From Alphaproteobacteria bacterium (GTDB lineage Bacteria; Pseudomonadota; Alphaproteobacteria; MPNO01; UBA830): a stretch of 64,000 bases of DNA. Below are positions 107 to 58,545 of this stretch, one piece after another (position 1 is the stretch's first letter; every line of letters begins with the position of its first letter). Below the pieces are notes generated by a model. The model worked only from the letters and a program-made list of their open reading frames with translations. It did no database searches and had not been told where the DNA came from. The stretch lies in contig OZ219791.1 in the NCBI GenBank assembly GCA_964291215.2, forward strand, positions 1,440,001 through 1,504,000, written 5' to 3'. The translations under genes were made by a program, and so were the position numbers.

Positions 107-556
107 GATTACGCAACCTGATGTCTGGAAATTGTCGTGAAGCTCTCAGTCATCGAGCTGTTCCCATTTGATCTTGGTTTCGGTTTCCCATTTTTCGTCG
201 ATGAGGACTGCGGTTGAGAGGCGCTCCAACGAGGCGAGGTTCGGAAAGACCCTGACTTTGGAGGTGCGCCGCTTGAGTTCTTGCTGGATCGGTCGCTCGA
301 TGCCGTTCGAGGTTCGCATACGCTTGCGGTGAGCATCGGGCAAGATGAAGACAGCGAGCCCCGCATTGTTTTCCAGCTAGGAAGCCTGGATGCTTGTCTC
401 GATAGCTGGCCACGAGGGCGGCCAGTTCAACCTCGGCGGTTTGGAGTGAGGAGGCGTGGCTCCGAGCTGTTTTCCAATACGTTTCCTGATGTCGTTGTTC
501 GATGCACGGCGTTTTGTGCCAGGTGGAACTGGCAGCGCTGCCATGTCGCCGCGCCC
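107..556 (-). mobile_element. IS256-family transposase 3' remnant with terminal repeat
   Basis: Minus-strand fragments WQRCQFHLAQNA and HRKRMRTSNGIERPIQQELKRRTSKVRVFPN. Near-identical to 22512-22972. Frameshifted. Confidence 0.9.
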
Positions 557-726
557 GGCGCTGCGCCGCCCAGGCATCCAGATCCCGGCGGCGATAGCGC
601 ACCCGGTTGCCGAACCGGTGGAAGTCCGGCCCGCCCCCGCTCACCCGGTAGCCCTCCAGCGTGCGGGGCGAGAGCCCGAGCCGCCGCATGCCGCGTGTCC
701 ATGAATTCCGGTTCGATCGCGCCCAT
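557..726 (-). pseudogene. Excisionase-like HTH (HTH_17/AlpA-like) DNA-binding protein, frameshifted and truncated
   Basis: ATG at 726 after GGAGG. Reads MGAIEPEFMDTRHAA, then after a frameshift RLGLSPRTLEGYRVSGGGPDFHRFGNRVRYRRRDLDAWA. Fused to the IS256 remnant. Confidence 0.8.
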
Positions 727-885
727 CCCGCTCTCCTCCAGGTCCTTCCCGGCGCCGCCCGCAGCGGCCCGGCGCCACTCTGGAGACCGCCGCCCTGCCT
801 TGCAAAGGAATCGGTTAGGGGATTTCCATCGCCCCGGACATGCGCGCCAGCCCTGCCCCGGACCGCGGACATGCCGGATGCGCGC
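630..885. repeat. Cassette segment (HTH 5' region plus upstream DNA); inverted copy at about 22066-22331
   Basis: Reverse complement aligns with 22066-22331 (gcgcatccggc...ggaaatcccct...gggaaggacctggaggagagcgggatgggcgcgatcgaaccggaattcatgg). Confidence 0.9.
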
Positions 886-1195
886 CCCCTCGTCTGGCTG
901 CCCGCGCGGGGCTGGGCAAGGGCGCTGCGAGGAATGCGCGTGTTTGCCATGATCGGCGAAACGTTTGCCGATGGCAGGATGTCCGGCTGCCGGGCTGTCG
1001 GGCACGGCGCGTGTTGAAACCGGCCTGCGGATGGGTTATGGATTGCACCGGCGGGTTCGCTGCGGTCCTGCGGGCGCGGCGGCTTGGAATCAGGGACGGG
1101 AGGATTAGATCATGACGCGGATGCCGGGCGATGTCGGGATGCATGACCTGCGGCTCTTCGGGCGGAGCGCCTCACGCGCGCGCGAACTCGTTGTA

Positions 1196-1217
1196 CCCCC
1201 CCCCCCCCCCCCCCCCC
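1196..1217 (+). repeat. C22 homopolymer in the 5' region of the autotransporter (candidate phase-variation tract)
   Basis: 22 consecutive C, lying between an RBS-preceded ATG at 1112 and the signal peptide coding region. Confidence 0.85.
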
Positions 1218-1245: not shown

Positions 1246-4200
1246 GTGGGCGCCCCCGGGAGAACCGCCCGCCGCCTGAAGGCGGGACTCGCTGCCCTCT
1301 TCCTCATCGCGCTGGCCGCCGCCCTCGCGCCCCAGGACGCGCAAGCGCAATCGCCGGTCCTCACCGCCACGGCGGGCAACGAACAGGTGACGCTGAACTG
1401 GACGTATACCGGCAGCGGGCTAACCGGTTGGGGGTACAAGATCAATGGCGGTACATATACTTGGGCTGGGACACCCATCGTTATTCCAGCTTCCAACTCC
1501 GGCACCAGAAGCCACACGGTAACGGGCCTGACGAACGGAACCCCTTATCAGTTCATTGTCTACGCGCAGACTGATGCCAATACAGCTTTCCGTCAAAGCA
1601 ACCAGGTGAGCGCCACGCCGCAGGTGCCGGCCCCGACACTGATCTCCGGCCCGGACAGTACCATCAGAACCGCCGAGACGACGACGCAGGTGTGCTACAA
1701 CCTGCTTTCGGTCTCGCAGGGTGCGACCACGTACTTGGAGGCGCGTCAGGGCAAGACGGCCGTGACCGCGCATTCGGTGCTCTCCGACGCGAGCCTCGGC
1801 GTCGAGATCACGCAGGCTCCCGCCGGCATCACGAAGGGGCGCGGCGTCAACCTCAGTCCCTGCGTCAATCTGGGCAAGGGCACACATACCGTCACTTGGA
1901 GCTGGAGGGGCCAGGACGGCACCGCCACGGCGGTCACGACCTCCACCACCGTCACCATCACCGACCCCGCGCCCGCACAGGCGAAGCCGGCGCTTACGGC
2001 AACCGCGGGTGTCGGCAGTGTCACACTCACCTGGACTCGTACCGGCAACACTGGATTTGGATATTGGGTTTACCGACAGGGGGTCACCGGAGGAGGTTAC
2101 GGCGACTGGATCGATATACCGGGCGGCGCCACCATCAGAATCCACACGGTCACAGGGTTGACCGCCGGCACCTCCTATACCTTCCAGGTGGCAAGGGCGG
2201 AAGGTACCGGTCTTAACTTTTCCGTCTTCGCTAGTGGGGGAGGGTACTCGAACGCGGCCACGGCGACGCCAACGGCGGCCACGACGCCCGCCGCCCCGAC
2301 GAACCTGACGGCGACGCCCGGCGGCCCCGCGCAGGTGTTGCTGACGTGGACCAAGCCGGCCGGCACGATCACCGGCTACAAGCTGCGCTACGCCAAGACG
2401 CCGTCAAAGGGCAGCGCCACCTGGGCCGCCATGACGGGTTCGGGCGCGAACACCGTGAGGCACATGGTGACGGGTCTGGACAACGACGCCGAATACAGTT
2501 TCATGATCCGTGCGGTGAACGCCTCCGGCGACGGCGCCGCCACGGACTGGGTGACGGCGACGCCTGCGGACAGCTGCCCTGGCGTGGGAGCACCGACGAA
2601 CCTGAGCCTCGCGCCGCGTTCGGACGGGTTTGCCGTCACCTGGAATGCACCGACCGATATCTTACGCAACGGCTGGGAATTGTCTTACAAGAAGACCGGG
2701 GGAAGTTCGAGCTCTGTCACCATCTCGGATGCCGCCGCGACCAGCCGCACGCTGACCGGCCTGGAGGCCGGCACCGAATACGAGATCGCTCTTCAAGCGA
2801 CGCATCCTGTCAATCCCGATCCTACTGCGTCATGCCCTCCAGGCTCCCGCGCAAAAGCCACCGGCACGACCCTCGCGGCCGCGATGCCGACCATCACCCT
2901 CACCGCCGCGACGGGGGACGGGCAGGTGACGTTGTCCTGGACCTATACCAACGACGATGGGGAGGCGTTCGATCACTGGCGTTACGCGCAGAAGAAAGGC
3001 GGCGGAAGCTACAGCTTTGGCGTGGCGATTCCCGGCGGCAAGACCGTCCGAATGCACACCGTGACAGGTCTGGAAAACGGTGCCGTATACACTTTCAAGG
3101 TCTCACGCGGAGTTACGAGTCCTCCACCTGCGATGATCCAGTCAACAGCAGATCCTGACTCCAACGAAGTCACCGCCACACCCACGGCGGCCCCCACCGT
3201 CGCCGTCCCCGCCGCGCCGACGGGCCTGTCGGCGGAGGCGGGCAACCGTCAGGTGAAGCTGACGTGGACCGACCCGGACGACGATTCGATCACGCGGTAT
3301 CGGGTGCAGCAGAGGAAGGGCAGCGCTGCCTGGGGCAGCTGGACCGCGATTTCCGGTTCGGACGCCGACACCACGACCCACACGGTGACGGGTCTGGACA
3401 ACGACAGCGAGTACCGCTTCCGCATCCGGGCGCGGAACAGCGGCGGCAACGGCGCCGCGTCGGCGGTGGTGGAGGCGACGCCGTCGGCGTCGGCAGCGGT
3501 TCCCAAGCCGGTGCTGAGCGCCGAACCGGGTTACGCCAGGGTCACCCTGAGCTGGAGCGCCTTGTCGGGTGTGACGGTTGCGAGCTGGGGCTATCAGTAC
3601 AAGCCCGCGGGCGGCAGCTGGATCAGGACCCGGACGGTCACCGGCGGCAGCACGACGAGCACCACGGTGACGGGGCTGACGATCGGCACGGAATACACGT
3701 TCCGGCTGTTCGCCGCGGTCGGTCCCGGTGTGCAGTCGGTGTGGTCGGACCAGGTGAAGGCGACGCCGACGAATACGGTTCCCAAGCCGGTTCTGACGGC
3801 GGCCGGGGGCGATGCCTCGGTCACCCTGAGCTGGAGCGCCTTGACGGGCATTCCGATAACGAGCTGGGGCTACCAGTACAAGAGCACGGGCGGCTGGAAC
3901 ACGACCACGACGGTCACGGGCAGAAGCAGGACGAGCGTCCGGGTGACGGGGCTGACGAAGGGCACGGACTACACGTTCCGCCTGTTTGCGGCGGTCCGTC
4001 CCGGGGTGCAGTCGGTGTGGTCGGACCAGGTGACGGCGAAGACCGATCCGGCGGCCCCGGTTCTGACGGCGGCGACCTCGACGACGAACGGGCAGATCGA
4101 CCTGACCTGGACCCATGCCGGCGGCTCGAACGAGTTGTCGGATGCGGACGACTATGTGAAGGACGCGGCCAAGTTCCATTGGTGGAGAGCGCAGACCCGG

Positions 4201-7200
4201 CTGAAGGGGGCCAGCACCTGGACGGATCGCAGTCTCAACCAGGCGAGTGCCAGACAGAACCCGGGCTCTCGCAGCAATCGGCTTCTGCTGAACTATCCTG
4301 ACGGGGCATCGGTCGAGGTCCGGGTTCGGGCAACGGGCTATCGCATGGCGGGTGTCGCCGGGGGAACGGGCAACCTTCAGGGTCCCTGGTCGAACATTCG
4401 TACGGTGACCTTCAAGGACGACACCACGGCGGCGCTCACGCTGACCGGGACGCCGGTGACGGTGGCGCCCGGTTCCACGGCGACCTACACGGTGGCGCTG
4501 ACGAAGGCGTTTGCGGGGACGCTGCGGGTGACGAGCGACGCCACGGCGGCGGCGCGGGTGAGTCCGGCGAGCCTGACATTTACCACCAGCAACTACAACA
4601 CGGCGCGGACGGTGACGGTGACCGGTGTGGCGAACGGCACGGCGGTGATCAACCACGCCTTCCGGCTGACGGGAGCCACGGCGGATGCGATCCCGGATGC
4701 GGGCACGGTGGACGTGACGGTGGCCGATACGCCGGGGGTGACGGTATCGACGGCGGCGCTGACGGTGGCGGAAGGGGGCAGCAGGACGTACACGATGCGG
4801 CTGAACACGCCGCCATCATCGGATGTGACGATCACGGTGGCGGGCGCGTCGGGGGACGTGACGGTGGAACCGGCCAGCCTGACCTTCACCCGGACCGACT
4901 GGAACCAGCCGCAGACGGTAACGGTGAACGCAGGCACGGACACGGACACGAACACGGACCCCGCCGTGACGCTGACCCACGGTGCCTCGGGCGGCGGCTA
5001 CGGCTCGGTGAGCATCGCCGATGTGGTGGTGAGCGTGGCGGAGAAGGATGCGGTGCCGTTGAAGCCGGCCGGCCTTGCCGGCGCGGCGGGCAGCGGCTCG
5101 GTGACGCTGAGCTGGACCGACCCGGACAACCCGACCATCACGAAGTGGCAGGTGCGGCGGAAGGCCGGCAGCGGCGAGTGGGGCGAGTGGGAGGACATTC
5201 CCGGCTCCGGTGCGGGCACCACCAGCCACGAGGTGAGCGGTCTGACCAACGGCACCGCCTACCAGTTCGAGGTGCGCGCGGTGAACGGGGCCGGCAACGG
5301 GGCCGGCCCGGATGCGCCGGTGACGGCGACGCCGGTGGCGCCGGTGGCGCCCGGCGGAGGAGGCGGCGGCGGCGGAGGCGGCGGCACGACCCCCGCCGCA
5401 AGCGTGACGGTGACGCCGACCGCGCTGACGGTGGCGGAGGGCAGCAGCGCCGCCTACACGGTGGTGCTGGACGCGGAACCCTCGGGCGATGTCACGGTGA
5501 CGGTGGGCGGCGCGTCGGGCGACGTGACGGTGGAACCGGCCAGCCTGACCTTCACGACCGCCAACTGGGACACGGCGCAGACGGTGACGGTGCGCGCGGC
5601 CCGAGACGAGGACACGACGGACGACACGGCGACGCTGACCCACGGCGCCTCGGGCGGCGGCTACGGTTCGGTGACCATCGATTCGGTGGCGGTGACGGTG
5701 ACCGACACGACGCTGTTGCCGGTGCTGACGCTGGCGCAGGATCCTGCGGCGGTGACCGAGGGCGACGACATCCGCCTCGCGGTGACCGCCGACCGGGCGC
5801 TGACGGGCAGCCTGACGGTCAGCCTGACGCTGTCGGCGCGCAACGCAAGCGGCTTCGATGCCGGTGACGTTCCGGGCGGTCTGGGGCCGCGTTCGTTCGA
5901 TGCGGTGTTCGGCGCCGCGGGGCGCACCACGGGGGTGGTGACGATCCCGACGGCGGCCGATGCGGATACGGAGGGGGCGGAAGCCTACCGCATCACGCTG
6001 AACGACGGTGCGGGCTACGCGGTGGGGAGCGACGCGACGGCTGCGGGCGTGCTGCGCGACCGTGCGCCGGGGTCCGTGTCACGGGCGAACCGGGTGAATG
6101 CGGCGGTGCTGCCGCATGTGGCGGCGGCGGCGATGTCGCAGACGCTGGGGGCGGTGACGGGGCGCATCGAGGCGGCAGGCAGGCCGGGCAGCTCGCTGCG
6201 GTTCGGCGCCCTGCCGTCGTCGCCGGTCAGTCATGCCCGGTCCGCCCGGTCCGCCCGGTCCGCGCCGCCGCGCCCTGAGGAGCCGACCCTGAGCGAGATA
6301 CTGGACGGGGCGTCCTTCACGCTGGCGGCGGGCGCCGGGGAGGACGGGGCATCCGCGCCGCCGTTGGCGGTGTGGGGCCGGGGCGAGTGGCTGTCGCTGT
6401 CGGGTTCGGAGAAGGATGTCACCTGGGACGGCGGCCTGTGGTCGGCGCAGCTGGGGGCGGACCTGCGGGTGCGCCCGGACCTGCTGGCCGGGGCGGCGCT
6501 CTCCCATGCGCGGGGCGAGCTGGACACGCAGACGGGCGGGGTGAAGGGCGTGCACGAGACCACGATCACGTCGGTGCACCCCTATGCGGCGTGGCTGGCG
6601 CCGGACGGCTCGACCCTGTGGGCGAGCCTCGGCTACGGGACCGGCGAGGTGCGGATTACCGAGGAAGGCGCGGCGGCGCGCAGCGCCGGGCTGACGCATT
6701 GGAGCGTGTCTGCGGGCGGCCGCAGCGTCCTGGCCGAGGATGCAGAGCTGATCGAGGGCGGGATGACGCGCCTTGCGGTGAAGGGCGAGGGTTCGGCGGC
6801 GCGTCTGCGCACGGAGGCCGATGACGGCCTGGCGGGGCTGACGGCGAGGACGACGCGGCTGCGGCTGCTGCTGGAGGGATCGTACGAGCACGCGCTGGCG
6901 GGCGGTGCGACGCTGACGCCGGCGCTGGAGGCGGGGGTGCGCCATGACGGCGGCGGCGTTGGCGAAGGGGCGGGCCTTGAGGCCGGAGCGGGCGTGACCT
7001 GGCATGACCCGGCGGCGGGCCTGACGGCGGAGTTGCGCGCGCGGCTCCTGGCGGCGCACGAGGCGGACCGCGACGAGTGGGGGGTGAGCGCGCTTGTGCG
7101 CCTCGACCCCGGGGCCGACGGGCGCGGGACGTTCCTCGCCTTCGGCCCCGCGCACGGGCGCACGGAGAGCGGCCTCGGGCAGCTGTTCGACCTGCCCGCG

Positions 7201-7452
7201 GCCGCATCCGGCACGGCGCCGGAAGGGGCAGAGAGCCGTCTGGAGGCGGAGGTGGGCCACGGCTTCGGCCTGCCCGGTCCGGGGCCGTTGGCGGTGCTCA
7301 CCCCCTGGGCCGGACTCAGCCTGGCGGGCGCACGCACCCTGCGGCTCGGCGCGCGCTACCGCCTGGGCGCGGGGCTGTCTCTCGGCGTCGAGGGCGCGCA
7401 CCGGCCGGGCCCCGAAGACAGCCTCATGCTGCGCGGCGCGCTCCGCTGGTAG
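1246..7452 (+). CDS. Large autotransporter/adhesin: signal peptide, about 10 fibronectin type III domains, Calx-beta-like/Ig-like repeats, C-terminal beta-barrel
   Basis: 2068-aa ORF. Signal peptide ending AQA-Q; repeated V.L.W...HTVTGL.NG..Y.F.V motifs; barrel region (VWGRGEWLSL, GLEAGAG) ending in W. The true start is probably ATG 1112, upstream of the poly-C. Confidence 0.9.
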   Translation: MGAPGRTARRLKAGLAALFLIALAAALAPQDAQAQSPVLTATAGNEQVTLNWTYTGSGLTGWGYKINGGTYTWAGTPIVIPASNSGTRSHTVTGLTNGTPYQFIVYAQTDANTAFRQSNQVSATPQVPAPTLISGPDSTIRTAETTTQVCYNLLSVSQGATTYLEARQGKTAVTAHSVLSDASLGVEITQAPAGITKGRGVNLSPCVNLGKGTHTVTWSWRGQDGTATAVTTSTTVTITDPAPAQAKPALTATAGVGSVTLTWTRTGNTGFGYWVYRQGVTGGGYGDWIDIPGGATIRIHTVTGLTAGTSYTFQVARAEGTGLNFSVFASGGGYSNAATATPTAATTPAAPTNLTATPGGPAQVLLTWTKPAGTITGYKLRYAKTPSKGSATWAAMTGSGANTVRHMVTGLDNDAEYSFMIRAVNASGDGAATDWVTATPADSCPGVGAPTNLSLAPRSDGFAVTWNAPTDILRNGWELSYKKTGGSSSSVTISDAAATSRTLTGLEAGTEYEIALQATHPVNPDPTASCPPGSRAKATGTTLAAAMPTITLTAATGDGQVTLSWTYTNDDGEAFDHWRYAQKKGGGSYSFGVAIPGGKTVRMHTVTGLENGAVYTFKVSRGVTSPPPAMIQSTADPDSNEVTATPTAAPTVAVPAAPTGLSAEAGNRQVKLTWTDPDDDSITRYRVQQRKGSAAWGSWTAISGSDADTTTHTVTGLDNDSEYRFRIRARNSGGNGAASAVVEATPSASAAVPKPVLSAEPGYARVTLSWSALSGVTVASWGYQYKPAGGSWIRTRTVTGGSTTSTTVTGLTIGTEYTFRLFAAVGPGVQSVWSDQVKATPTNTVPKPVLTAAGGDASVTLSWSALTGIPITSWGYQYKSTGGWNTTTTVTGRSRTSVRVTGLTKGTDYTFRLFAAVRPGVQSVWSDQVTAKTDPAAPVLTAATSTTNGQIDLTWTHAGGSNELSDADDYVKDAAKFHWWRAQTRLKGASTWTDRSLNQASARQNPGSRSNRLLLNYPDGASVEVRVRATGYRMAGVAGGTGNLQGPWSNIRTVTFKDDTTAALTLTGTPVTVAPGSTATYTVALTKAFAGTLRVTSDATAAARVSPASLTFTTSNYNTARTVTVTGVANGTAVINHAFRLTGATADAIPDAGTVDVTVADTPGVTVSTAALTVAEGGSRTYTMRLNTPPSSDVTITVAGASGDVTVEPASLTFTRTDWNQPQTVTVNAGTDTDTNTDPAVTLTHGASGGGYGSVSIADVVVSVAEKDAVPLKPAGLAGAAGSGSVTLSWTDPDNPTITKWQVRRKAGSGEWGEWEDIPGSGAGTTSHEVSGLTNGTAYQFEVRAVNGAGNGAGPDAPVTATPVAPVAPGGGGGGGGGGGTTPAASVTVTPTALTVAEGSSAAYTVVLDAEPSGDVTVTVGGASGDVTVEPASLTFTTANWDTAQTVTVRAARDEDTTDDTATLTHGASGGGYGSVTIDSVAVTVTDTTLLPVLTLAQDPAAVTEGDDIRLAVTADRALTGSLTVSLTLSARNASGFDAGDVPGGLGPRSFDAVFGAAGRTTGVVTIPTAADADTEGAEAYRITLNDGAGYAVGSDATAAGVLRDRAPGSVSRANRVNAAVLPHVAAAAMSQTLGAVTGRIEAAGRPGSSLRFGALPSSPVSHARSARSARSAPPRPEEPTLSEILDGASFTLAAGAGEDGASAPPLAVWGRGEWLSLSGSEKDVTWDGGLWSAQLGADLRVRPDLLAGAALSHARGELDTQTGGVKGVHETTITSVHPYAAWLAPDGSTLWASLGYGTGEVRITEEGAAARSAGLTHWSVSAGGRSVLAEDAELIEGGMTRLAVKGEGSAARLRTEADDGLAGLTARTTRLRLLLEGSYEHALAGGATLTPALEAGVRHDGGGVGEGAGLEAGAGVTWHDPAAGLTAELRARLLAAHEADRDEWGVSALVRLDPGADGRGTFLAFGPAHGRTESGLGQLFDLPAAASGTAPEGAESRLEAEVGHGFGLPGPGPLAVLTPWAGLSLAGARTLRLGARYRLGAGLSLGVEGAHRPGPEDSLMLRGALRW
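3499..4045 (+). repeat. Tandem near-identical FN3 modules (period about 279 bp)
   Basis: gttcccaagccggt at 3499 and 3778; both encode VTLSWSAL...SWGYQYK...YTFRLFAAV.PGVQSVWSDQV. Confidence 0.85.
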
Positions 7453-40300: not shown

Positions 40301-40481
40301 GACGCCTGGCCCTGCCGTTCCGAGAGCGGCGCCGCCACGCCGCGTTGCAGGCCCGGCTCTTGGGAGGTCGATGTCGACATTTCGGAACGGCGGATATTGA
40401 CGTCGGGCGACGATGCCCGCACTATCGATTCCGGCATGCGCAGGCACGGTCGGCGCGGCGGAAACGGGGAGGAGGGGAACC

Positions 40482-41096: not shown

Positions 41097-41188
41097 ACGC
41101 AGGCGAGCGGGCGGCAGGGGTCCGCACTGTCCCGCCCGGCGTGGCTGGGTTATATTAGGCGCTCGTCAAGCCGATGCGATGATGACAC

Positions 41189-42511: not shown

Positions 42512-42542
42512 ACGGACCTGACCAGCCTGGCGCGCGTATGCC

Positions 42543-43022: not shown

Positions 43023-43066
43023 TTTGCCGCCACATCCGTAGTCCGGTACCCGACCAACAAGGAGAC

Positions 43067-43432: not shown

Positions 43433-43481
43433 CGCAATAGCGGAGCGTCCGCGCCATCTCCACCGACCCCGGCCGGACGCC

Positions 43482-44336
43482 GTGGACACGGCCAGTCCAA
43501 TCGGAGCCGGGGTCGGTCTGAAGCCGGCCCACATCGAAAGCGCCCTCGGCCATCGCGAATCCGGGCTCTGGTTCGAGGTCCATACGGAAAACTACATGAT
43601 CGCAGGCGGGCCGCGGCTGGAACAGTTGCGGCAGATCCGCGAGATCTTCCCAGTAAGCCTCCATGGCGTCGGCGCGTCGCTCGGCGGAACGGATCAGCTT
43701 GACCGCCGGCACTTAGCAGCGACGAGGCGACTGGTCGACGAGTTCGAACCCGTCCTCGTATCCGAGCACGCCGTATGGTCGGCGGCCGACGGCATCTGGT
43801 TCGCCGATCTCCTGCCGGTCCCGAGGACCGGCGACGCGCTGCGCCATCTGGCGTCCCGCGTACAGCAATACCAGGAAGCTGTCGGCCGGCAGATCCTGCT
43901 CGAGAATCCGACCAACTATCTCCCGTTTGTCAGCGAGATCGACGAACCTGAGTTCCTCAACGAAGTCGCCACCCGCAGCGGATGCGGGCTGCTCCTCGAC
44001 GTCAACAATATCTTTCTCAGCGCCTGCAATTGCGGCATCGACCCCAAACGGTACATCACGGCGCTGGCTGGCGACCGCATCGGTGAAATTCACATCGCCG
44101 GCTTCGAGCCCGACGAGAATCTCGGCCAAGAACTGCTGATCGACACCCATTCCGCACCGGTGAGCAGCGCGGTGTGGGAGCTTCTAGATTTCGCGCTCAG
44201 GCATCTCGGCCCGAGACCCGTGCTTCTCGAACGCGACAACAAGCTGCCGCCCTGGAACACGCTGATGAACGAGCGACGACGCGCCGCCGACGCGCTCCGC
44301 CGCCTGCGGTCAGCACCGGAAGCGATCCTTGCTTGA
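43482..44336 (+). CDS. DUF692 multinuclear non-heme iron oxidase (BufB-like)
   Basis: GVGLKPAH, WFEVHTENY, SLHGVG, SEH, LENP, LLDVNN, EIHIAG, IDTH, LERD. Confidence 0.93.
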   Translation: MDTASPIGAGVGLKPAHIESALGHRESGLWFEVHTENYMIAGGPRLEQLRQIREIFPVSLHGVGASLGGTDQLDRRHLAATRRLVDEFEPVLVSEHAVWSAADGIWFADLLPVPRTGDALRHLASRVQQYQEAVGRQILLENPTNYLPFVSEIDEPEFLNEVATRSGCGLLLDVNNIFLSACNCGIDPKRYITALAGDRIGEIHIAGFEPDENLGQELLIDTHSAPVSSAVWELLDFALRHLGPRPVLLERDNKLPPWNTLMNERRRAADALRRLRSAPEAILA

Positions 44337-45090
44337 AACCTACACCCGGGCCTTTGCCGCCTACATGCGGAGCGGAATTGTGGGCGCACTGTCGGACTAT
44401 TGCGACCCCTGCGCCGATCCTGTCCGGCTCCAAGTCTACCGCAACGGCTTTCTCAAGGCGTGCACGGACGCGCTCAGGGCAAGCTATCCGGCGGTCGAGC
44501 ACATTGTCGGAGAGGACAGCTTTGCGACACTGGCACGCCCCTTCATCGAAACCAAACCACCGCGCACGGCCAGCCTTGTCGGATATGGCAGCGATTTCCC
44601 AACCTTCCTCGCGCAGTCCGCGGAGGTCCACGGACTACCCTACCTTGCTTCGTTCGCCACCCTCGACTGGGCCTGGTTGGAGGTCTATTTCGCCGAGGAT
44701 CCGCCCGTCTCGCCGGATGTTCCGGAGGGCCTTGACGCCGGGGACGACCCGGCGCGCATACTCGAGCGGCGTGGCGGCCTTGCGTCATGGGCGCGGCTGG
44801 TCGCGCTCGACTACGGCGCCCTCGACATATGGATGCGGATCCGGGACGACGAGCTCGACCGCCGGACCAAAATCGCGGCGGAGCCCGAGCACATCCTCGT
44901 CTGGCGCAACGGCATGGAGATCCACCACCGTAGCCTGCCGCCGGCCGAGTACGCGTTTCTTGCCGACCTCGCGGCGGGCTGGCCCTGCGGCGACGCCGCT
45001 ACGTCAGCGCTTGAGGCCGATGTGGAATTCGATCTCGCCAACGCCTTCGCGACGCTGCTTCATCATCAGATCGTGGTGTTCCGAGACTGA
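44329..45090 (+). CDS. DUF2063 partner protein (BufC-like)
   Basis: RLQVYRNG...AL...YPAV...VG...F, YG..FP.FL, PYL...A.LDWA. Confidence 0.88.
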   Translation: MLETYTRAFAAYMRSGIVGALSDYCDPCADPVRLQVYRNGFLKACTDALRASYPAVEHIVGEDSFATLARPFIETKPPRTASLVGYGSDFPTFLAQSAEVHGLPYLASFATLDWAWLEVYFAEDPPVSPDVPEGLDAGDDPARILERRGGLASWARLVALDYGALDIWMRIRDDELDRRTKIAAEPEHILVWRNGMEIHHRSLPPAEYAFLADLAAGWPCGDAATSALEADVEFDLANAFATLLHHQIVVFRD

Positions 45091-45252
45091 CGGTCTCCGG
45101 CACCACCAGACGCGGCCCCGGCGGCGTGCGACACTGAAGCCTGCGGCAGGTAGCCGGTCTCGGGGTCCGAACCTGCCGGTTGCACGGCAGCGCCGGTTGT
45201 TCTAGCGTCAGGATCGCAGCGGCGGCGCAACATGGACAGGAGCAGCGGAGCC

Positions 45253-45777
45253 ATGATCTCGACATATCGAGCGTTGTTCGTTCGCAGTTTCCAGCAACTC
45301 GAACCGCTCTCGCTACTGTGCCTCAGGCTTGCCATAGCGAAGGTGTTCTGGGATTCCGGGGTGACCAAGTGGAACGGTTTTCTCGATTTCAACGCCGGCA
45401 AGTTCGACCTGTTCCTTTACGAGTTCTTCTGTCCGAAGCCGCCGCGGGCAGGAGCGCTGCAGCTCTGCGATCCGAATACCCTTGAGTACACCCAGGGCTC
45501 CTTCATGGTCACCGCCGTCAAGGCGCTGGCGGTGCTGGCAGGGGTGGTCGAAATCGTCCTTCCCATACTGCTCGTGGTCGGGCTCCTGAGCCGCCTGTCC
45601 GCACTCGGGCTTTTCGGTATGACCATCTTCATCCAGCTCGCCGTGTTTCCCAGCTGGGAACATTGGTGGAACCCCGCCGTCTGGTGGGCGGTCATCCTGC
45701 TGCTCCTGATAACGCGCGGGCCCGGCTCCTGGTCCCTCGACCACCTGTTCCGTCTGGAAGGTCATTCGTGGAGGTGA
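45253..45777 (+). CDS. DoxX family membrane protein (BufD-like)
   Basis: RLAIAKVFWDSGVTKW, EIVLPILLVVGLLSRLSALGL, GPGSWSLD. Start could be 45232. Confidence 0.88.
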   Translation: MISTYRALFVRSFQQLEPLSLLCLRLAIAKVFWDSGVTKWNGFLDFNAGKFDLFLYEFFCPKPPRAGALQLCDPNTLEYTQGSFMVTAVKALAVLAGVVEIVLPILLVVGLLSRLSALGLFGMTIFIQLAVFPSWEHWWNPAVWWAVILLLLITRGPGSWSLDHLFRLEGHSWR

Positions 45778-45924
45778 CCTGGACAGCCGACTGCCTTAAC
45801 CCAAGTTGGCACTTTTTGCGTCAGTTGAAGGGGAAATTTATGCGGCAGCCTCACTCGATATACCTTATGTTAGCATTTTCGTGACATTGCCTACTATATT
45901 TACGATTTCCTGTCCGAGATGGCC

Positions 45925-47140
45925 GGTGTAGTGCCAGAATATTGCCGATTCGCTCGACCCCGCCGCCAAATCCGGTATATCCTCGTCAACACAAAAGGCT
46001 CCAGACAATATGTTCATCAGGGCAACCAAAACCCGCAGCACCGCAGACGGCAAACCCGTTTACCGGCTCGTGCTTTCTCAGCGCACCGACGACAAGGTCA
46101 GGCAGCGCACCCTGCCTCGGTACCGACTGTCCGGTGGCGCGCAAGAACCGGAAGGAGGTTACCGCCGAAGCGCTGCTCCACGGCCACCCGCCACTGTTCG
46201 AAGCCGCGTGCAGGCCGCAGCCGAGAACATCGTCAACAAGGGCCCGGAGGTTCCGCGCCGATGCTCTGGAGGAAGACGCACGCAAATTGCGACCGTCAAC
46301 CTCGACAGCCTCGAGCACGAGAACCCGCGTTCGGTCGGCTGCCTGTGCCTCGAGGCGCGATCTCGGCTTCACGACCTCGGCATCACGGGCCGCGAGTGCG
46401 CTGATCGTCGCCAGGATGATCCGCCAGCGAGCGCTGGCTGCGCGATGACAGCGCGACCGCGGAGCTTCCGGAGCGCAAGGCGCGCAAGACGCCGTACCGA
46501 ATCGGCGACCTGCGTCACCGGGCCGCCATCCGGAAGGAACTGTTCAACCACGAGCGCGCGCTGCATCCCCGACACCATCGCCTTTTACGACCTCACCAAT
46601 GTTCACGGCCGCGCCGACGGCAAGCTCCCCCGCTTCGGGCGCTCGAAGCAGAAGCGCAATGATTGCCCCACGCTGGCGCTCGACGGCGCGGGCTTTCGGT
46701 GCAGTTGCGAGGTCTTGCCGGGCAACGTGGCCGGGCACGGATGCGCTGGCGAGGCTGGAGGCGGGCCCGGCGGCAAAGCCGACGGTAGTCATAGACGCCG
46801 GCACCGAGGCGAACATCGCGTGGCGAGCACGACTGGATCGCGGGCGGCGCCGCCCGAGGGTGGGCCCGAGGCTGATCACCAGCACCAACCACGAGGTGCA
46901 GGCGCCTTGCCAGCGAGGATGGCGCGGCTCCACGTGGTCAGCGAGAGCAGGAAGAGGGCCGAGGACGCCATTCCTGGCTGTAGGGCTTCGAGGCGGCAAA
47001 GTTCCACCTCTCGGCCAAGGGCCGGCGCCACGACAAGGTGCCGGAGAGCGGTCTCAAGCAGCGCTTCTCCACCGTCGCCCGGCACTACGAGATCACTGTC
47101 GAGAAGGCCGGCGCTAACGCAACTGCCGCTTCAGCCATAG
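45925..47140 (+). mobile_element. IS1634-family transposase remnant
   Basis: MFIRATKTR...YRLV.SQR...KVRQRTL, FYDLTN, RFGRSKQKRNDCP, VLPGNV; heavily deleted. Confidence 0.75.
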
Positions 47141-47154
47141 GCCGCAATACGACA

Positions 47155-48758
47155 AGCATCCATGTTTCCTTGCAAGGCTTTCGCGGGTGTCCGCGGTGGT
47201 GTTTTCCGTGGTTGTCCACAGGCGGTCCGGGGTTCCGCCTTGTCGATGTCCTGCGAGCGAGGCGACATGCAGCTTGTGGTCCCGGCGGCGGGTTGCCGTC
47301 CGTTGCTCATGGTCACGTGAGCGCGGCCACCTTGCCGCCCAGCGTCCCCGGGCATGGTAACGTTACCGTGGTCAATGGGGTTCCGGGTGTCCCGTCCGTA
47401 GCCGCGCGGCGGTTCGATGTCCTTGAGAGCCTCAATGTCGGCCTCGACGATGATCTGCAGACGTTCTCCGTAAGCCGTGTCGCGCAGGGAGTCGGGGAGA
47501 CTGTCGAAACTGTCCCGATAGTGCTCCTGCAATGCACCGAGCCACCGCATCGCGCCAGCGTTGCGCACGGGAACGACGGGGCTTTCGGTGGTGGACGGCG
47601 GAGATTTGCGGCGTTCCCGATAACGGCGCTGCTTCTCGGCAGGGGCGAGAGCCATGAGAGTGTCTCCTTCGCTCACTCACCGGTGCTTCGGGCGACCAGC
47701 AGCGCTGCTGTCGCAGCAAGGTGTTCGCCAGCACGTTGCGCATCACGGCGACAATCGCGACCTTGCTTGCCGGCGGTCTCGAGGCGTTCGAACACCAGGT
47801 CCGCGTTGAAGCGTGCCGGTTGCGGCCATGAACAGGAGATCGCGTGGCCTTCTGCGCCCGCCTCGGATGTGTCGGGCACCGTGGCCGTCGGCCATCGGCG
47901 CCATCCCGATCAAGGCTGCCGACGCTGCCGAGTTCGGGCATCCAGAAGGGCGGCGGCGGTCACCGGACCGGGGATCGAGGTCAGGATGCCGTACCTCTGC
48001 TCGGGATCACGGACGATCACCGCTTTGATTGCCGCACCGGCAATCATCGAAATCGGCCGCCGAGGCCCTTGTGACGGTCTCGCCATCCACCTCATCTGCC
48101 ACCTGCCTGGCGTCGACAAGCGCGGCACCAAGAGATCCTCCAGGCTCTTGAGGAAGGCACCCTGAGGAGCTACAGGCTCGAGATCGCACCGTGCCGATCC
48201 TGGCCAGCGTCGACGCGATTGGCCAGATGGCCCAACGCTTCGGCGAAGCCCGCAGCGGGCAGGACAACCTCGAAGCCCCGGTCATGAAGACACTGGTAAA
48301 CCCTGCGGTGATAGCGGCCTGTCGCCTCCATCACCACACGGGTCACCTCGGAGGCTGCGAAGCTACGTGCCCGCCAGCTCGTGGCGTCGTTCGCAAAACG
48401 ACGCGCTGCCGCACGGACTGGCCTTGCTGACCCCTGCTACTACCTTGACCATTGTCCCTTGCTCCTCGTCTCATGATGATACGGCTTAAACTCGGGCATC
48501 CATTCAGGACGCAAGGGACGCCAAGGGAGGTTGGTCGACCACGCTCGGGAACGGCTCTGCAAGGCCAAGGCGGAAACGGCAACCTTCGCGGAGATCGTTT
48601 GATCCCCGCACCCCTGTGCATGCTCGCACAGGGAAGCGGAATCTCTCTGCAACCATAGACCGGGCACCCTCCCACAGTCGAGGTTATCCACATTTTCCCG
48701 CCCCCGACCGCTGTGGGTGATTGCATCATCACTGGGACAAAACCTGGTCATATAAGGC
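47155..48758 (-). mobile_element. IS110-family element with long 5' non-coding region and downstream passenger ORF, copy 1 (decayed)
   Basis: ATG 48452 MVKVVAGV; fragments LTSIPGPVTAAALL, MPELGSVGSL, HIRGGRR, KVAIVAVMR. Homologous in inverted orientation to 56751-58094. Confidence 0.8.
47385..47655 (-). pseudogene. Small passenger protein of the IS110 element
   Basis: RBS AAGGAG; MALAPAEKQRRYRERRK...RSRAQRWRDAVA...LQEHY...DSLPDSLRDTAYGERLQII...IEPPRGYGRD, frameshifted. Homologue at about 57770-57900. Confidence 0.6.
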
Positions 48759-52237: not shown

Positions 52238-52432
52238 CCACGACGATCCCATGCTAATTCAGAGACGCGAAATCCGAATGCGTTGGGGCTCGGCTCATCA
52301 CAGATCGCCTCTTTGATCGCAATTTTCGTGCCAAGAAGGCCCCATCGAGCCTTGGCGGCACGATTGCAGTGCGACGCAAACTGAGAAAATCTCGCCAGTC
52401 GTCGCCGGATTAGCAGCGTGGGATCACCGTGG
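52238..52432. mobile_element. ~195-bp MITE-like element, copy 1
   Basis: TIRs ccacgacgatcccatgct / agcgtgggatcaccgtgg; flanked by a catttgc direct repeat. Homologous to 61925-62118. Confidence 0.85.
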
Positions 52433-52575
52433 CATTTGCCACGCGGCAGTCAATTTTGCTGTGTGCTGCTCACCGGAGGTTTCACAGGCCCGTTTTTCCG
52501 GGTTTTCTGGCTTTGGGGCCGTCAGGCGGCGCCACCGCGCCCGACAGCGCCTGCGGGCGCGACAGCAGCCTGCGC

Positions 52576-52909: not shown

Positions 52910-54330
52910 TCAACCGGACACCGTCGAGTCGATCGATTTCAGCATACCGAGATCCCGCATCATTCGGTAGTGTTCGACGAATTGGAGGAGGATTGAGTAT
53001 CTCTGCCAGAGTTTCTGAGTTCCTGGCCGGGGTTGGCGTTTGCTGGGGATGAAGCCTGCCAGGCGCGCGATGTCGATGGCGAAGGCTTCGATGGTCAGTT
53101 CCGGATCGGGAGGCGCGCGCGGTTTGCGTTTGTTGTGCTGCCTGTCGGTCATGTGGATGTTGAGGACCGTGATCTCGTCGCGGTGGATAATGCGGCTGGC
53201 CAGCGTGTTGAGCTCCGAGCGTGCGAGACGCTCGACGGTCATGACGTGATATGCGGTGATGGCATCGAAGGTTAGGCATTTCTTCAGGTCGTCGTCCTGG
53301 TCGAGGTACCGGTCCTCGGTTCGCATGCCGACCTGCAGGGCCTTGAGGTACTCTCCAATCAACCATCGCCTCTCGTAGAAGGAGACGGTGTCGAGGGCAT
53401 CGGCCGCGGTGACCTCGCCTTCGGTAGTGAGCAGCATCCAGTCGAGAGGATCTGCCGGTGGGCCGGGTTCCGTGACATGCACGACCATCACAGGCAGCGG
53501 CGGCGTTCCCCGGGACTTGCTGCCCGGTGGGGCAAGGTCGACCCTTGCCATGCGGACTTCGACGCGCACATCCTTGCGCTCCTTGCGGCGACGCGGCCCT
53601 CCGCAGGCTGCGGTGTCGATCGGCTTCGTCGCGATGCACGGCTCATCGGGCATGTGGTCCCAAAGGTCCCGGTGCGCGCCCGTTGTGGTAACCACGCGCC
53701 GCCGTGTCGAGCGCCTGACGCGCACCAGCAGACCAGCCCTGTGCTCGGTGCTCCGGGCCAGCAGGTCCCGGATGTTGCCTTCATGGTTACGAGATCACGG
53801 TGGGGAGATCACGGATCACCGGCACTTTTGTCGAGGGACAGGCCAGTTCCACGGCCCTGTCGTACCCGCCGGCTCTCCTTGTCGTCCGCCTCGTGCCCCG
53901 GCCGCCGCCGGAAGTCGGCATCGAAATGGAACAGGCCGAGGGCACAGCCGCCTTCGGTGAAGGCGACCCCGGCATGGGCCGCAATATCAAGAGCACCCGA
54001 GCCGCCGCGACCGATGTCGACAAGACCCGCCTCCAGGCCATTGTAATTCAGGAACATCGTGTCCTGGATGGCAAGGACCCGGCGCTGCGGACGGCAGCGC
54101 TCCACCATCGCTTCCTGATGCTCCTCGAGGATATGGTCCATCGGTCACCTTCGGGTTCGACAACAGGCGGCAGGCCGCCTTCTGCTCCGCCCCGCCGGGG
54201 AAGATCACCGGCAGGATCTCTCCGGGACGATCATTCCACGCCCATGGTGATAAGGCGGTCGCGGATGCGCACACGGCGATCCCACGCCAGGTTTGTTGGA
54301 AGGGTCGGTTTCGCTTGTTCCAGATGATTC
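52910..54330 (-). mobile_element. IS4-family (IS50/Tn5-like) transposase remnant
   Basis: LLSNPKV, LAIQDT..LNY, LDWMLLTT, YERRWLIGEYLKALQVG, ARLAGF...PGTQKLW. Confidence 0.85.
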
Positions 54331-54439
54331 GCATTTTTGCCGACTTTTTGTGAAGCGGCGCAGTATCCGTTGTCGTGGAGGCAGCGGATTTTTTTGAGAC
54401 GACTCCGAAGGGTTTTGCGCTCCGGGATGTGGTTGTGCG

Positions 54440-55558
54440 CCTTGCGCGGCCTGATGTCGCTGGAATCGTGCGGTTGACGGTATCCTGGTTTCAAGCAGTT
54501 TGCCGGTCGAGGTCTGCGTGTTCACCTGGCGCGGGCGGTGGATTGGTGCTGCGGGCTGGCAGACGGGCGCCCTCAGCTGCGCGGGACCGCTGGATTGGCT
54601 GGCGCCGCGAGGAACAGTTCAGGCGGTTGCCGGGAACAACACGAGGTTTGTTGTTCCTGGTGGTCGTTTCCGGGCCTCTTTTGCGTTGTCGCGGATGGTG
54701 CGGCGGCGACCGGGAGGCTGCCGTTGCTTGTTGCGGAGAAGTTTGTCTCGCCGACGAAGTTCAGCGGCACCATGTACAAGGCGGCGAACCGGGAGTGCGT
54801 TGGCAGGAGCCATGCGCGCGCCAGCGGGCGCCGACCGGGGAGGCGAAGGATCCTTACGTTTTTCCGCTGCGTCGTGACGCGGGATCGTTCGCCGCTTCCT
54901 GCGGCGTGGGAGTTGCGGGCGCCGCCGGTCGGCGCAGGAGTTGCGCTCGATTTATCAGCGGCGCTTTCCGGCGCGCGCAGGGGCACCGCATCGCCTCGGT
55001 GCTGTGCGTGATTTTGCTGGCTTGCGAACCGGCACGGTTGCGGCGGCGCACTACGACGCAGAAGGAGCTGGAGCAGCGTGGAAGAACAGGGACAAGCCGG
55101 TCTCCACCGTGCACCGGGTGCTGCAGAACACCGACCCGGGATGGATCGAGGACGCGGCGCGCAGCCGCAGGTCGGCAACGCGGTCGACGGCAAGCGCACC
55201 GGCGAGGATCATTACGAGACGGTCTCGCTGGCCGGTATTCGATCCTCAACTGTCACGGCGGGGAGATCGCTGCCGTCCACGCCGCGACGGCGCCGGCCGT
55301 CTGCTCACCCTCGACGCGCTCCACACCACCCGCGAGGCTGATCGTCGAGACCCATCGCGCGGACTGATGGTCAAGGGCAACGCGCCTTCGAGAGCATCAA
55401 CTGGAAGACCGCGAGCGCTACAGCGAAAAGCCCGCGCATGGCCGCCAGCGCACCATCTTCACCCCGCTGGCGAAGATGATCAACTAGTCAAGCAGATCTT
55501 CCGCGTCACCCGGCGCGTCGAATTCAGGAAATCCGGAAAACCGAACACGCCATGACCT
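54440..55558 (+). mobile_element. ISAs1-family transposase with DUF4338-like N-terminal domain, 5' part (decayed)
   Basis: ARDRWIGW, NNTRF, E.FV.P.KF.GT.YKAAN (DUF4338-like); VDGKR, GGEIAAV, TLDALHT, VKGN (ISAs1). Confidence 0.7.
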
Positions 55559-55559
55559 C

Positions 55560-56751
55560 CCCCGTTCCATAGTGAAGTGCAACACATGATGGGCTGTGGC
55601 CATGTGTTTTTAGACGCATGATGTTGCGGAGCTGTCCAGCAGCGGCGAGAGTTCCTGTACAAGATGGAGGGAGCTTGTTCATGTCCAAAGGCTACCGTCA
55701 CCTACGAAGAGCGATGTCAGATTGAGGCAGAAAAGCGGTCTTTCACAAGGTGCGATTGCTCGGCAGCTGGGCCGTTCAACAATTTTCCGAGAGATCAAGC
55801 GCAACACCGGGGGACGGGGTTACCGTCACAAGCAGGCGCAAAGGATGGCAGAAACGCGCCGCAGGGCCGCCTCGTCTGTTTCTTGGCGGTTGACGCCTCA
55901 ACGATGAGCTGAAGCTCAGAAAAAGCTGCGGGAGGGCCCCGAGCAGCGGCCGTTTTCGACTGGAAGGCCGTGAACGGATCCATGATCGCCGAAGATCGGA
56001 GAGCCGGGGGCGTCTTGTGGAAGAAGCTTCGGCGGCGCGGCAAGAAGCCGAACTGGAAGGGCGGATGCCATTCCGGCCGGGTGGACATTTCCGAGCGCCC
56101 TGCGGAGGCAAAGGAACGGATCGGCGACTGGGAGCCATCATCGGCAAAGCTCACAGTGGAGCTGTCGTGTCGCTCGTGCCACGAAATACACCTTGCTGGG
56201 TGGACAGAAAGACACGGTTGGTATGATCCGCCTGCTCGGCTCTGGTGCGCTATTGGTCCACACAATCACAACGGCAAGGAGTTCGCAGACCACAGGCGTG
56301 TCGCACTTGACGCAGATTTCTTCTTCGCCTTTCCATTCCTGGGAGCGCGGCTTGAATGAGCACACCAACGGCCTGGTGCGGGAGTACTTCCCGAAGGGCA
56401 CGGACTTTCGCGCGACATGCAACGAAGATGTTCAGAAGGTGCGGCTCAACACTCGGAAAGTCCTGGGATCGCCGACGGAGGTAATCTTGAAGTGAAACCG
56501 CGCTGACCATCTGCGCCATGTTCCGCAGCCGCAACGTGCAGCAGGGTCCATGCCGCGCGACGGCGAAATAGTGGCTTGAAGCCGACAAAGGCGTTGCATA
56601 AGCTCGATGTTGAAGGAACTGAAGCTGTTCCCAAGCGGAATCGAGAGGGGCAGAGGGGAAAAATTTGCGCAACACCCGGCCCTCATCTCCGTTCGGGCTA
56701 CGCCCTCACTGCGATGAGGGCCGGGTGTTGCACTTCAGACTGGAAGTGGGG
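55560..56751 (+). mobile_element. IS30-family element, both ends present, transposase decayed
   Basis: TIRs ccccgttccatagtgaagtgcaacac / gtgttgcacttcagactggaagtgggg; RIGDWE, NGKEF, HSWERGLNEHTNGLVREYFPKGTDF. Confidence 0.92.
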
Positions 56752-58094
56752 CCTTATATGACTAGGTTTTGTCCCCTTGATGATGAAATCATCCACAGCA
56801 GTTGGGGGCGGGAAAATGTGGATCTGTGGGAGAGCTATGGTTGCAGAGAGATTCCGCTCCTCTGTGCGAACACGCACAGGGGAGCGGGGATCAAACGATC
56901 TCCGCGGAGGTTGCCGTTTTAACCTTGACAGAGCCGCGACCGAGTGTGGTCGGCCAACCTCCCTTGACGTCCCTCGCTGGATGCTTGGGTTTGAACCCGT
57001 ATCATCGTAAGGCGAGGAGCAAGGGACGATGGTCAAGGTAGTAGCAGGGGTCAGCCAGTCTGGACATCTGGCGCATTGTTTTGCGAACGACGCCACGAGC
57101 TGGCGGGCAGGTGGCTTCGCGGCCTCGGGGTGAGCTGGGTGGTGGGCGACAGGCCGCTATCACCGCAAGGTTCACCAGTGTCTTCATGACCGGGGCTTCG
57201 AGGTTATTCTCGTCAACCCGTTGCGGGCTTCGCCGAGGCGATGGGCCAACCGCGTCGACGCCAAGATCGGCTGGGCGATCTTGAGTCTGTGGCTCCGCCT
57301 TCCTCAAGAGCCTGGAGGATCTCCTGGTGCCGCGCTTGTCGACGCCAAGCAGGTGGCAGATGAGGTGGATGGCGAGACCGTCACAAGGGCCTCGGCGGCC
57401 GATCTCGATGATCGCATTGCCGGCGCGGCGACCAAAGCGGTGATCGGCGGTGATCCCGAGCAGAGGTACGCCATCCTGACCTCGATCCGGTGACCGCCGC
57501 GGCCCTTCTTTGCTGGATGCCCGAACTCGGCAGTGTCGGCAGCCTTGATCGGGGTGGCGCCAACGACCACGGTGCTAGGCACATCCGTGGCGGGCGCCGA
57601 AGGCCACGTGATCTCCTGCTCATGGCCGCAACCGGCACGCTTCAACGCGGACCTGGTGCGCCTCAAGACTGCCGGCAAGCAAGGTCGCGATTGTCGCCGT
57701 GATGCGCAAGCTCTGGCGAACACCTTGCTGCGACAGCAGCGTTGCCTGAAGCACCGGTGAGTGAGCGAAGGAGACACGGCCCTGCCGAGAGCGCGATCGG
57801 GACTGTCTCGACAGTCTCCCTCTACGACACGACTTGGGGAGAATGTCTGCAGATCATCGTCGAGGTCGACATCAAGGAGATCGAACCGCCTTGGGACACC
57901 TGGAACCCGGACGGTCACGTGCCCGGGGACGGCAAGGTAGCCGCGTTCACGTGACTAATGGACGGCAACCCGCCGCCGGGACCACAAGCTTCATGTCGCC
58001 TCGCTCGCAGAGCAAATCCCACACCGCTTGCGGACAACCACAGAAAACATCACCACAGACACCCGCAAAAACCTTGCCAAGAAACATGGATGCT
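56751..58094 (+). mobile_element. IS110-family element with passenger, copy 2 (decayed)
   Basis: Inverted homologue of 47155-48758; ATG 57029; ILTSI, VTAAALLCWMPELGSVGSL, RHIRGGRR. Confidence 0.8.
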
Positions 58095-58545
58095 CGGTCG
58101 AACGCGCCTCGCCGCAACAGTTGCTCGCATGGAATCGCGGACACTGGGTGGTCGAGAGCCATCATCATGTCCGCGACGCCACCTTCCGCGAAGACGACCC
58201 CATGCTCCGAACGCGCCCGCAAACAACGCGATCACCCTTGCAATCATCATCCGCAACAAGCGCAAGCTGCGCAAACCCTTCAACAGCTTCCCACCATGGC
58301 AACAAGCGCAAGCAGGTCCTGCACGCAATCACAAGACCAGGCTGACCGCGCCTTTCTCCCCGACAGAAACCGCAAGCTTTCGAGCCCGGCAACCAAGGCC
58401 TCTCGCTCGCCCCGGATACGCCGACCAATCGCGCCCCGCGCCGCAACAGCGCGTCAGCAAATCTCAAAATCGCAGCCTCGAACGCGTCGACCCGCGCCGC
58501 GATCAGGACTCTGATCACATCACATCAACAAGCATGAGATCACTT
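58095..58545 (+). mobile_element. ISAs1-family transposase 3' part
   Basis: VERASPQQLLAWNRGHWVVESHHHVRDATFRED; continues the reading broken at 55558. Confidence 0.78.

Follow-up and report, generated by a model that had tools for sequence, protein, structure and literature searches.

Why do the insertion sequence (IS) relics of one alphaproteobacterial genome lack so many short pieces, often at the same places in different copies? The question is raised by a stretch of 64,000 nucleotides (the window, C2:1440001-1504000) in the genome of an Alphaproteobacteria bacterium, designated here as G000, which comprises 6.15 Mb in two contigs (C1 and C2) with 64% GC. Among named organisms, those whose dihydroorotate dehydrogenase comes closest to that of G000 are Alphaproteobacteria. 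About 36% of this genome lies in or near repeated sequence, according to an 18-mer test, and the IS relics of the window have from 20 to more than 100 homologues each within it. An earlier note on the window had proposed an unusually strong deletion process guided by microhomology. The feature is real and genome-wide, and it does not match most of the known deletion processes against which it was tested; it consists mainly of deletions of 5–7 bp.

Deletions of 5–7 bp in repeats and single-copy DNA

The polarity of the events can be read from the IS256 family. In an alignment of 75 near-full copies, gaps are found at fixed sites, mostly 6 bp long and in mosaic combinations. The rare long alleles of these copies, when merged, give a stop-free frame of 400 codons (393 from the first Met), and this reopened frame identifies the gaps as deletions. 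Each copy carries 5–25 deletions of 5–14 bp (mean 17.7 in 1,229 bp; n = 75), together with about four private substitutions, and none of the 75 has fewer than five deletions. The mean number per copy is 16.8 for IS630 (56 copies), 14.7 for an IS30-like family (45) and 32.0 for an ISAs1-like family (34). At a transposase locus of the congener G001 (L202) that was compared with a G000 relic, 16 of the 19 gaps on the G000 side are 5–7 bp long, and none on the G001 side exceeds 3 bp.

The length spectrum was obtained by a genome-wide, alignment-free scan for 12+12-mer anchors found with and without 1–40 bp between them. The repeats of G000 yielded 4,861 distinct indel alleles, 2,470 of them 5–7 bp long, with the mode at 6 bp. 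The counts are 566, 154, 102, 86, 523, 1,236, 711 and 224 for lengths of 1–8 bp and 178, 64, 114, 184 and 101 for 9–13 bp. Indels of 2–4 bp are rare (342 of 4,861), and 6-bp indels exceed 1-bp indels (1,236 vs 566); a second hump at 11–13 bp is the pattern that two adjacent events would give. In twenty random 20-kb pieces of G000, gaps of 1–8 bp between repeats numbered 78, 27, 15, 7, 130, 278, 147 and 20. Indels in bacterial pseudogenes are described, in the accessible text of the source, as having power-law sizes with an excess of multiples of three (Danneels et al. 2018, PMC6054270). This ordinary decay pattern is not found in G000 and is found in the control genome G004.

Single-copy DNA was compared with that of G001, which is 93% identical (472,562 of 780,286 bases aligned, about a sixth of the G001 genome). 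A gap was kept only where at least 9 of the 12 flank bases matched, open reading frames (ORFs) were predicted by a simple rule based on GC at third codon positions (GC3) and polarity was assumed from the repeat data. Over 79,976 bp of single-copy non-coding DNA, 41 gaps of 5–8 bp fall in G000 and 2 in G001 (binomial p 2e-10), the corresponding numbers for 1–4 bp gaps being 92 and 67. Over 377,640 bp of predicted ORFs, in-frame 6-bp gaps number 23 in G000 vs 1 in G001 (p 3e-6), and only four G000 gaps are 5, 7 or 8 bp long, many of the 6-bp losses affecting linkers or regions close to the protein ends. Since single-copy DNA and ORFs bear the signature as well, the process is not confined to IS, and the anti-transposon erosion suggested in the earlier note is not supported in that form, though high-copy elements are hit hardest. 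IS256 copies have a density of about 14 deletions per kb, vs about 0.5 per kb in single-copy non-coding DNA, the latter corresponding to about one per 90 substitutions if divergence splits evenly across the branches. Copies of jumping genes carry about 25 times more such deletions than single-copy DNA.

Two relatives could be scored for repeats, in regions chosen mostly around transposase matches. In G002 (240 kb sampled), gaps of 1–8 bp number 32, 4, 9, 0, 62, 79, 7 and 3; in G004 (400 kb), they number 37, 5, 12, 5, 0, 15, 2 and 0. The repeat pairs obtained from G003 (4) and G001 (2) were too few for scoring. The trait is present in two species of the genus, with modes of 6–7 bp in G000 and 5–6 bp in G002; it is not seen in the repeats of G004 or in the single-copy DNA of G001.

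The idea that the gaps are assembly artefacts, raised in the earlier note as a possible refutation, was checked with short reads. A short-read contig of run X1, which may be the source sample, is identical to window positions 39700-45827, with zero differences, and three runs of a single study (X1, X2 and X3) have both long and short IS alleles in their short-read contigs. Run X3, from a strain about 1% diverged, has one 6-bp single-copy deletion at C1:612,726 that G000, X1 and X2 lack. Frameshifting sizes are purged from ORFs, and in G002 the signature recurs with a different mode; both facts speak against an error of assembly or polishing. Short-read contigs break in repeats, so the phasing of alleles inside single high-copy elements is beyond the reach of this check, which leaves the artefact some room. 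For the deletions themselves this reading is largely refuted, and its overall probability is negligible.

Deletion sites, repair genes and shared alleles

Clustering of 1,697 non-tandem alleles of 5–7 bp, each present in at least four copies, gave 816 independent sites. Microhomology at these sites is 0 bp in 27% (52% expected), 1 bp in 27% and at least 3 bp in 27% (7% expected); 46% have at least 2 bp, vs 19% expected, and 54% have 0–1 bp. Microhomology is partly enriched, and the fixed length of 5–7 bp is the defining trait, so the guiding role that the earlier note gave to microhomology is not supported in that form. An orientation-free fit produced a weak start motif, S|RYC, with S (G or C) at −1, R (purine), Y (pyrimidine) and C at the deletion start and R at +4. 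Its log-likelihood is 312 (438 sites) vs 28–37 in three matched pseudo-deletion controls, and these controls, together with mixed codon phases, exclude a codon-phase artefact. The 6-bp sites have a roughly symmetric Y-S-S-R core. When the G000 motif was applied to 59 sites of G002, the score was +0.24 ± 0.17 vs −0.63 in controls. No periodic signal was found in the flanks of deletion sites, and the motif score does not predict the number of copies deleted (114 sites, rho 0.13, p 0.17). Two further candidates were rejected, namely hairpin skipping (stems at the 816 sites are the same as in shifted controls) and a methylation motif (rare C>T changes differ only about two-fold by context).

The standard repair genes of G000 appear to be in order. 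The frames of mutS and mutL are open (981 and 670 aa), and recA, dnaQ, recJ, xseA and polA are intact, so that the slippage without repair considered in the earlier note is not supported. Open frames were also found for ruvABC, recG, recQ, recF, recR, recN, radA, uvrC, uvrD, mfd, ligA, xthA, nth, mutM, mutY, rarA, gyrB, parE and topA, and near-full-length matches for rnhA, rnhB, dnaQ and dinB. GyrA and ParC are open, the changes in GyrA being conservative only. Queries with E. coli recO, ung, sbcC and sbcD had no match in G000, a result that does not by itself show their absence. Neither Ku (PF02735) nor an ATP-dependent ligase (PF01068) was found in any of the five genomes, so the Ku/LigD end joining of the earlier note finds no support here; topoisomerase IB (PF01028) likewise had no match in the five, and NucS (PF01939) had none in G000. 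A mismatch-repair-deficient mutator was rejected, as mutS and mutL are open and 6-bp rather than 1-bp indels dominate. Convergent changes shared by G000 and G002 in TopA, PolA, part of MutS and GyrA were also set aside; they are isolated and mostly conservative, e.g., L to F near residue 542 of PolA. The presence of cas1 (four of five genomes) and of reverse transcriptase (three of five) does not track the trait, and CRISPR self-targeting of IS was rejected, none of the 96 spacers matching outside the one array examined.

Some further loci were noted. The array at C1:574173-581180 has 97 repeats, 96 of them identical, and adjoins a 599-codon frame containing cas1; a second cas1 lies at C2:2067161. 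A frame of 1,716 codons at C2:2752621-2755770 matches both RecQ and UvrD queries and is apparently a fused helicase. In G002, the 424-codon frame of locus L011 (C1:2511838-2515047) encodes a nuclease domain like NucS_C; it has no homologue in G000.

Alleles are shuffled over 20–40 bp, by gene conversion or repeated crossover between copies. The r2 between single-nucleotide polymorphisms (SNPs) is 0.28 at 0–10 bp, 0.21 at 10–20 bp, 0.09 at 20–40 bp and 0.04 farther apart, and 73% of 66 SNP pairs 10–20 bp apart fail the four-gamete test. Target duplications are unmatched in 22 of 47 IS256 copies and 19 of 39 IS30-like copies. As the SNPs are as mosaic as the deletions, gene conversion accounts for most of the sharing of gaps. 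Minor alleles overlap a major site in 59 of 90 cases (about 20% expected). The earlier note had taken the sharing of gaps as a hint of independent events; such recurrence is likely in some cases, and conversion explains most of the sharing. Its two IS256 copies with different Lys codons at one shared gap were recovered (AAA/AAG; 23479, minus strand, and 24779, plus strand), and this difference could equally be one later transition.

The frequencies of the alleles suggest that conversion is biased toward the short one. In four families, 52 deletion alleles are singletons vs 101 present in at least 10 copies, the numbers for SNPs being 950 and 143. The ratio of 5–8 bp gaps to substitutions climbs from 0.04 to 0.23 with copy number (679 tiles scored of 700, drawn from 4,283). 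Private SNPs, relative to the expectation for the copy, stand at 0.87 beside deleted alleles, 1.33 (1.15–1.54) beside rare long alleles and 1.04 beside rare SNP alleles. The bias is read from the frequency spectrum, the copy-number trend and the private SNPs near rare long alleles.

Relic elements and neighbouring genes of the window

Pfam backs the names IS256, IS630, IS110 and metY; the names IS30 and ISAs1 are presumed from motifs, the former also from its target duplication of 2–3 bp. Deletions in the window were counted against the merged family sequence, and nearly all of them are 5–7 bp long. The strong deletion process that the earlier note had proposed is confirmed. The IS256-family copy at 22511-23791 (minus strand; Pfam Transposase_mut, E 4.5e-43) has 12 deletions: eight of 6 bp, three of 7 bp and one of 12 bp. 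The IS630-family copy at 38505-39734 (plus), with DDE_3 and HTH_32 fragments under the Pfam cut-off, has 22, of which 17 are 5–7 bp. The IS30-like copy at 55559-56751 (plus), flanked by a 2–3 bp target duplication, has 15, 14 of them 5–7 bp, and the first part of an ISAs1-like element at 54272-55558 (plus), which resumes at about 58093-58548, has 40, of which 31 are 5–7 bp.

Other relics are fragments or were assessed by BLAST gap counts and the genome-wide scan, with no per-copy count (the latter applies to the IS1634-like and IS110 relics). An IS256-family 3′ fragment at 106-566 (minus) is 94% identical to 22511-22982; it bears the short allele of a pair quoted in the earlier note, TTGATGTATGCCTTGG at 22573 (plus) and TTGATCTTGG at 168 (plus), both of which were found in place. 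At 24167-24801 (plus), an IS30-like 5′ fragment (24167-24462) is fused to an IS256 5′ fragment (24467-24801). An eroded IS110-family copy lies at 47155-48758 (minus; DEDD_Tnp_IS110 fragment, E 6.9e-05; about 65 genome matches), and a second copy, inverted relative to it and with a different set of gaps, at 56752-58094 (plus). The IS110 pair of the earlier note was located at 48431 (minus) and 57050 (plus), and its IS30 pair at 55629 and 24237 (plus). A gap-rich repeat of about 25 copies at 45793-47154 (plus) was labelled IS1634 in that note; Pfam gave no match there, and the label is unconfirmed. A miniature inverted-repeat transposable element (MITE) of about 192 bp, with 9-bp target duplications and about 113 copies, occupies 52238-52433.

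The earlier note had found the IS and metY relics alike, which is true of IS256, IS630, IS30-like and ISAs1-like copies and does not extend to metY. The single-copy metY-like relic at 39755-40293 (plus; Cys_Met_Meta_PP fragments) has stops, 1–2 bp indels and one 9-bp gap when compared with its one intact paralogue (68% identical, 554 bp aligned). Its sequence is identical in a short-read contig of run X1. Its decay is ordinary, and it serves as a control without the dense pattern.

Elements outside the window differ in age. A separate IS256 family has two intact copies (C1:885013-886362 and C2:3220124-3221473); over 1,350 bp they show 97% identity, 41 substitutions and no gaps. A young 2.36-kb element, which we take to be IS66-like, is present at C2:2470786-2473143 and about 12 other places with 99.7% identity and no 5–8 bp gaps; it has GTAA ends and 8-bp AT-rich target duplications, and its two frames span 463 and 234 codons, the shorter encoding a DPPY motif that resembles the one in adenine methyltransferases. 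Its older relatives (84% identical) do carry 5–8 bp gaps. In the IS256 family of the window, poly-G and poly-C runs flank CTAG 5′ of the transposase start; their length varies between copies, and they could form a hairpin.

Among the genes of the window, the frame at 1246-7452 (plus) encodes a 2,068-aa protein of fibronectin type III repeats, with a poly-C run upstream at about 1195-1218. Several copies elsewhere are about 99% identical over 1 kb, and the closest have no 5–8 bp gaps. Consecutive genes for DUF2282, MbnB/TglH/ChrH (DUF692), DUF2063 and DoxX proteins at 43067-45777 (plus) presumably form a cluster of the bufferin type for ribosomally synthesised and post-translationally modified peptides (RiPPs).

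Possible mechanisms and known systems

That the signature exists despite intact standard repair genes implies an undescribed DNA-processing step. We lean, with some reserve, towards the explanation that a putative excise-and-rejoin enzyme produces the 5–7 bp deletions and that gene conversion between IS copies, favouring the deletion, then spreads them. The enzyme would remove a short piece of one strand, most often from S|RYC, and rejoin the strand across the gap; short-patch conversion would carry each deletion to other copies in favour of the short allele. MutS corrects loops no longer than about 4 nt, while larger ones escape it. As the size distribution breaks off below 5 bp with MutS and MutL intact, a looped intermediate on one strand may be supposed. 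An upper limit near 8 nt could arise because longer pieces would stay annealed, and the sharpness of this limit fits a release of short oligonucleotides such as that of the TOP1 model (accessible text of PMC8866115). In genes, selection removes the 5- and 7-bp events and passes some of the 6-bp ones. A more specific version, somewhat doubtful as it stands, is that of a bacterial erosion system without described counterpart, in which a nuclease or an enzyme of strand transfer, acquired or activated separately in two congeners, would excise about 6 bp at S|RYC and, by short-patch conversion, spread the shortened allele to all repeated sequences.

A number of results weigh against the excise-and-rejoin explanation. 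The motif is weak (SRYC at 45% vs 23%, a two-fold difference), and it barely rises over background (1.05 vs 0.86) at the 68 single-copy sites, which were identified against the 7%-diverged sister. No replichore bias was found with the replication origin set by GC skew near C2 600 kb (odds ratio 1.06 at 131 sites; 20:19 at single-copy sites), which speaks against a lagging-strand primer gap, and no coding-strand bias was found either (42:35 vs 1233:1066), which speaks against an origin tied to the transcribed strand. No gene family among those tested separates G000 and G002 from G001 and G004, and no enzyme was found. As to biased conversion, the copy-number trend is confounded by functional paralogues among the low-copy repeats, private SNPs are as depleted at 35–60 bp from deleted alleles (0.85) as close to them (0.87), and the linkage of SNPs to deletions at 0–20 bp lies below that between SNPs (0.13 and 0.05 vs 0.28 and 0.21). 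An old burst would likewise account for an excess of common deletion alleles. At shared sites, 21 length variants were counted vs 3.7 expected, an excess that points to some true recurrence, though many of them lie in G or C runs.

The strongest of the rivals, though an unlikely one, is a staggered double-strand cut by gyrase or topoisomerase IV (or a host-made poison acting on them), with ends trimmed by 1–2 nt and sealed independently of Ku; the alleles may then still be spread by conversion. Deletions of 6–8 bp belong to the ID_TOP2A signature (10.1101/2020.05.22.111666, accessible text), the Y-S-S-R core and the lack of strand bias would suit such a cut, and conversion would likewise be pushed to the short allele if cutting abolished its own site. 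The 2–4 bp duplication peak is missing, however (154, 102 and 86 indels of 2, 3 and 4 bp). The determinants −4G, −2A and −1T (PMC10117906, accessible text), compared by eye, do not fit S at the −2 equivalent; the flanks show no periodic signal, GyrA and ParC are open with conservative GyrA changes only, and neither Ku nor an ATP-dependent ligase was found in the five genomes. An old burst of deletions followed by unbiased conversion and descent, with alleles common through age, seems less probable still. It agrees with the scarcity of singletons at new sites and with the gap-free state of both the young family of about 13 copies and the two intact IS256 copies with their 41 substitutions. It is opposed by the single-copy 6-bp deletion of strain X3 (one event), by rare long alleles lying in locally older patches and by the same branch showing about 0.5 deletions per kb in single-copy non-coding DNA vs about 14 per kb in IS256.

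Independent deletion of copies at true sequence hotspots, which would explain the weak linkage between SNPs and deletions at 0–20 bp, the overlap of minor alleles with major sites and the excess of length variants, is improbable. Many same-length variants are the major allele plus one transition, the two-fold enriched motif does not predict allele frequency and erosion is much lighter in single-copy DNA and in the metY relic; nor does the number of deletions per copy rise with private substitutions (r 0.07, −0.04, −0.30 and −0.55). There is only a slight chance that one of the abundant transposases cuts off-target, perhaps with an IEE-type primase-polymerase. The two genomes that carry the signature are also those in the genus with a size of 6.1 Mb, G000 has two decayed pieces resembling the AEP-TOTE primase domain of IEE-type proteins (C2:1964090 and C1:2487141-2487533), and IEE has end-joining activity (PMC9943667, accessible text). 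Against it, the target duplications of families with detected ends are 2–3, about 4, 8, 9 and 10 bp long (the 8-bp ones often AT-rich), none being a GC-rich one of 5–7 bp; G004 is also IS-rich yet lacks the signature, and AEP-TOTE is unmatched in G002.

The sizes of bacterial indels are generally assumed to obey a power law; in the present case a lineage-specific, sharp size peak is combined with a start motif, whole IS families are disabled and two residues are trimmed from proteins. The existence of relatives with the trait (G000 and G002) and without it (G001 and G004) makes its cause findable by genome comparison and makes deletion-biased gene conversion in bacteria directly testable in them. 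No description of this signature was found in the literature searched, most subscription papers and supplements lying outside that search. EndoMS/NucS cuts mismatches with a 5-nt stagger. It would give heteroduplex deletions of about 5 bp; G000 has no PF01939 match, and mismatch-triggered cutting was rejected, as SNPs inside deleted intervals are not in excess (0.030 vs 0.038).

Comparison with the published systems relies on the accessible text of each source. The deletion bias of bacterial pseudogenes (PMC6054270) resembles G000 in that neutral DNA sheds short pieces, partly at microhomologies and mostly without Ku/LigD. In G000, unlike there, 5- and 7-bp indels each exceed 3-bp ones five- to seven-fold, and the published pattern is shown by G004, not by G000 or G002. 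Degraded IS of Wolbachia (PMC3205602) also persist as many non-functional copies and exchange sequence; that text reports no fixed deletion size, whereas in G000 linkage decays within 20–40 bp and deletion alleles are much more often widespread among copies than SNP alleles. ID_TOP2A, caused by human TOP2A K743N (10.1101/2020.05.22.111666), likewise has a narrow, stand-out class of 6–8 bp deletions, but it adds 2–4 bp duplications and tracks transcription, while G000 has no duplication peak and the topoisomerase motif misfits. ID4/ID-TOP1 (PMC8866115) comprises 2–5 bp deletions at a TNT motif in repeats and requires topoisomerase IB, whereas no PF01028 match was found in G000, which possesses rnhB. 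Its sequential cleavage of one strand with realigned religation, giving deletions of limited size, is nevertheless the model for the excise-and-rejoin explanation. The proposed erosion system, for its part, would be like fungal repeat-induced point mutation (RIP): the more copies, the faster the decay.

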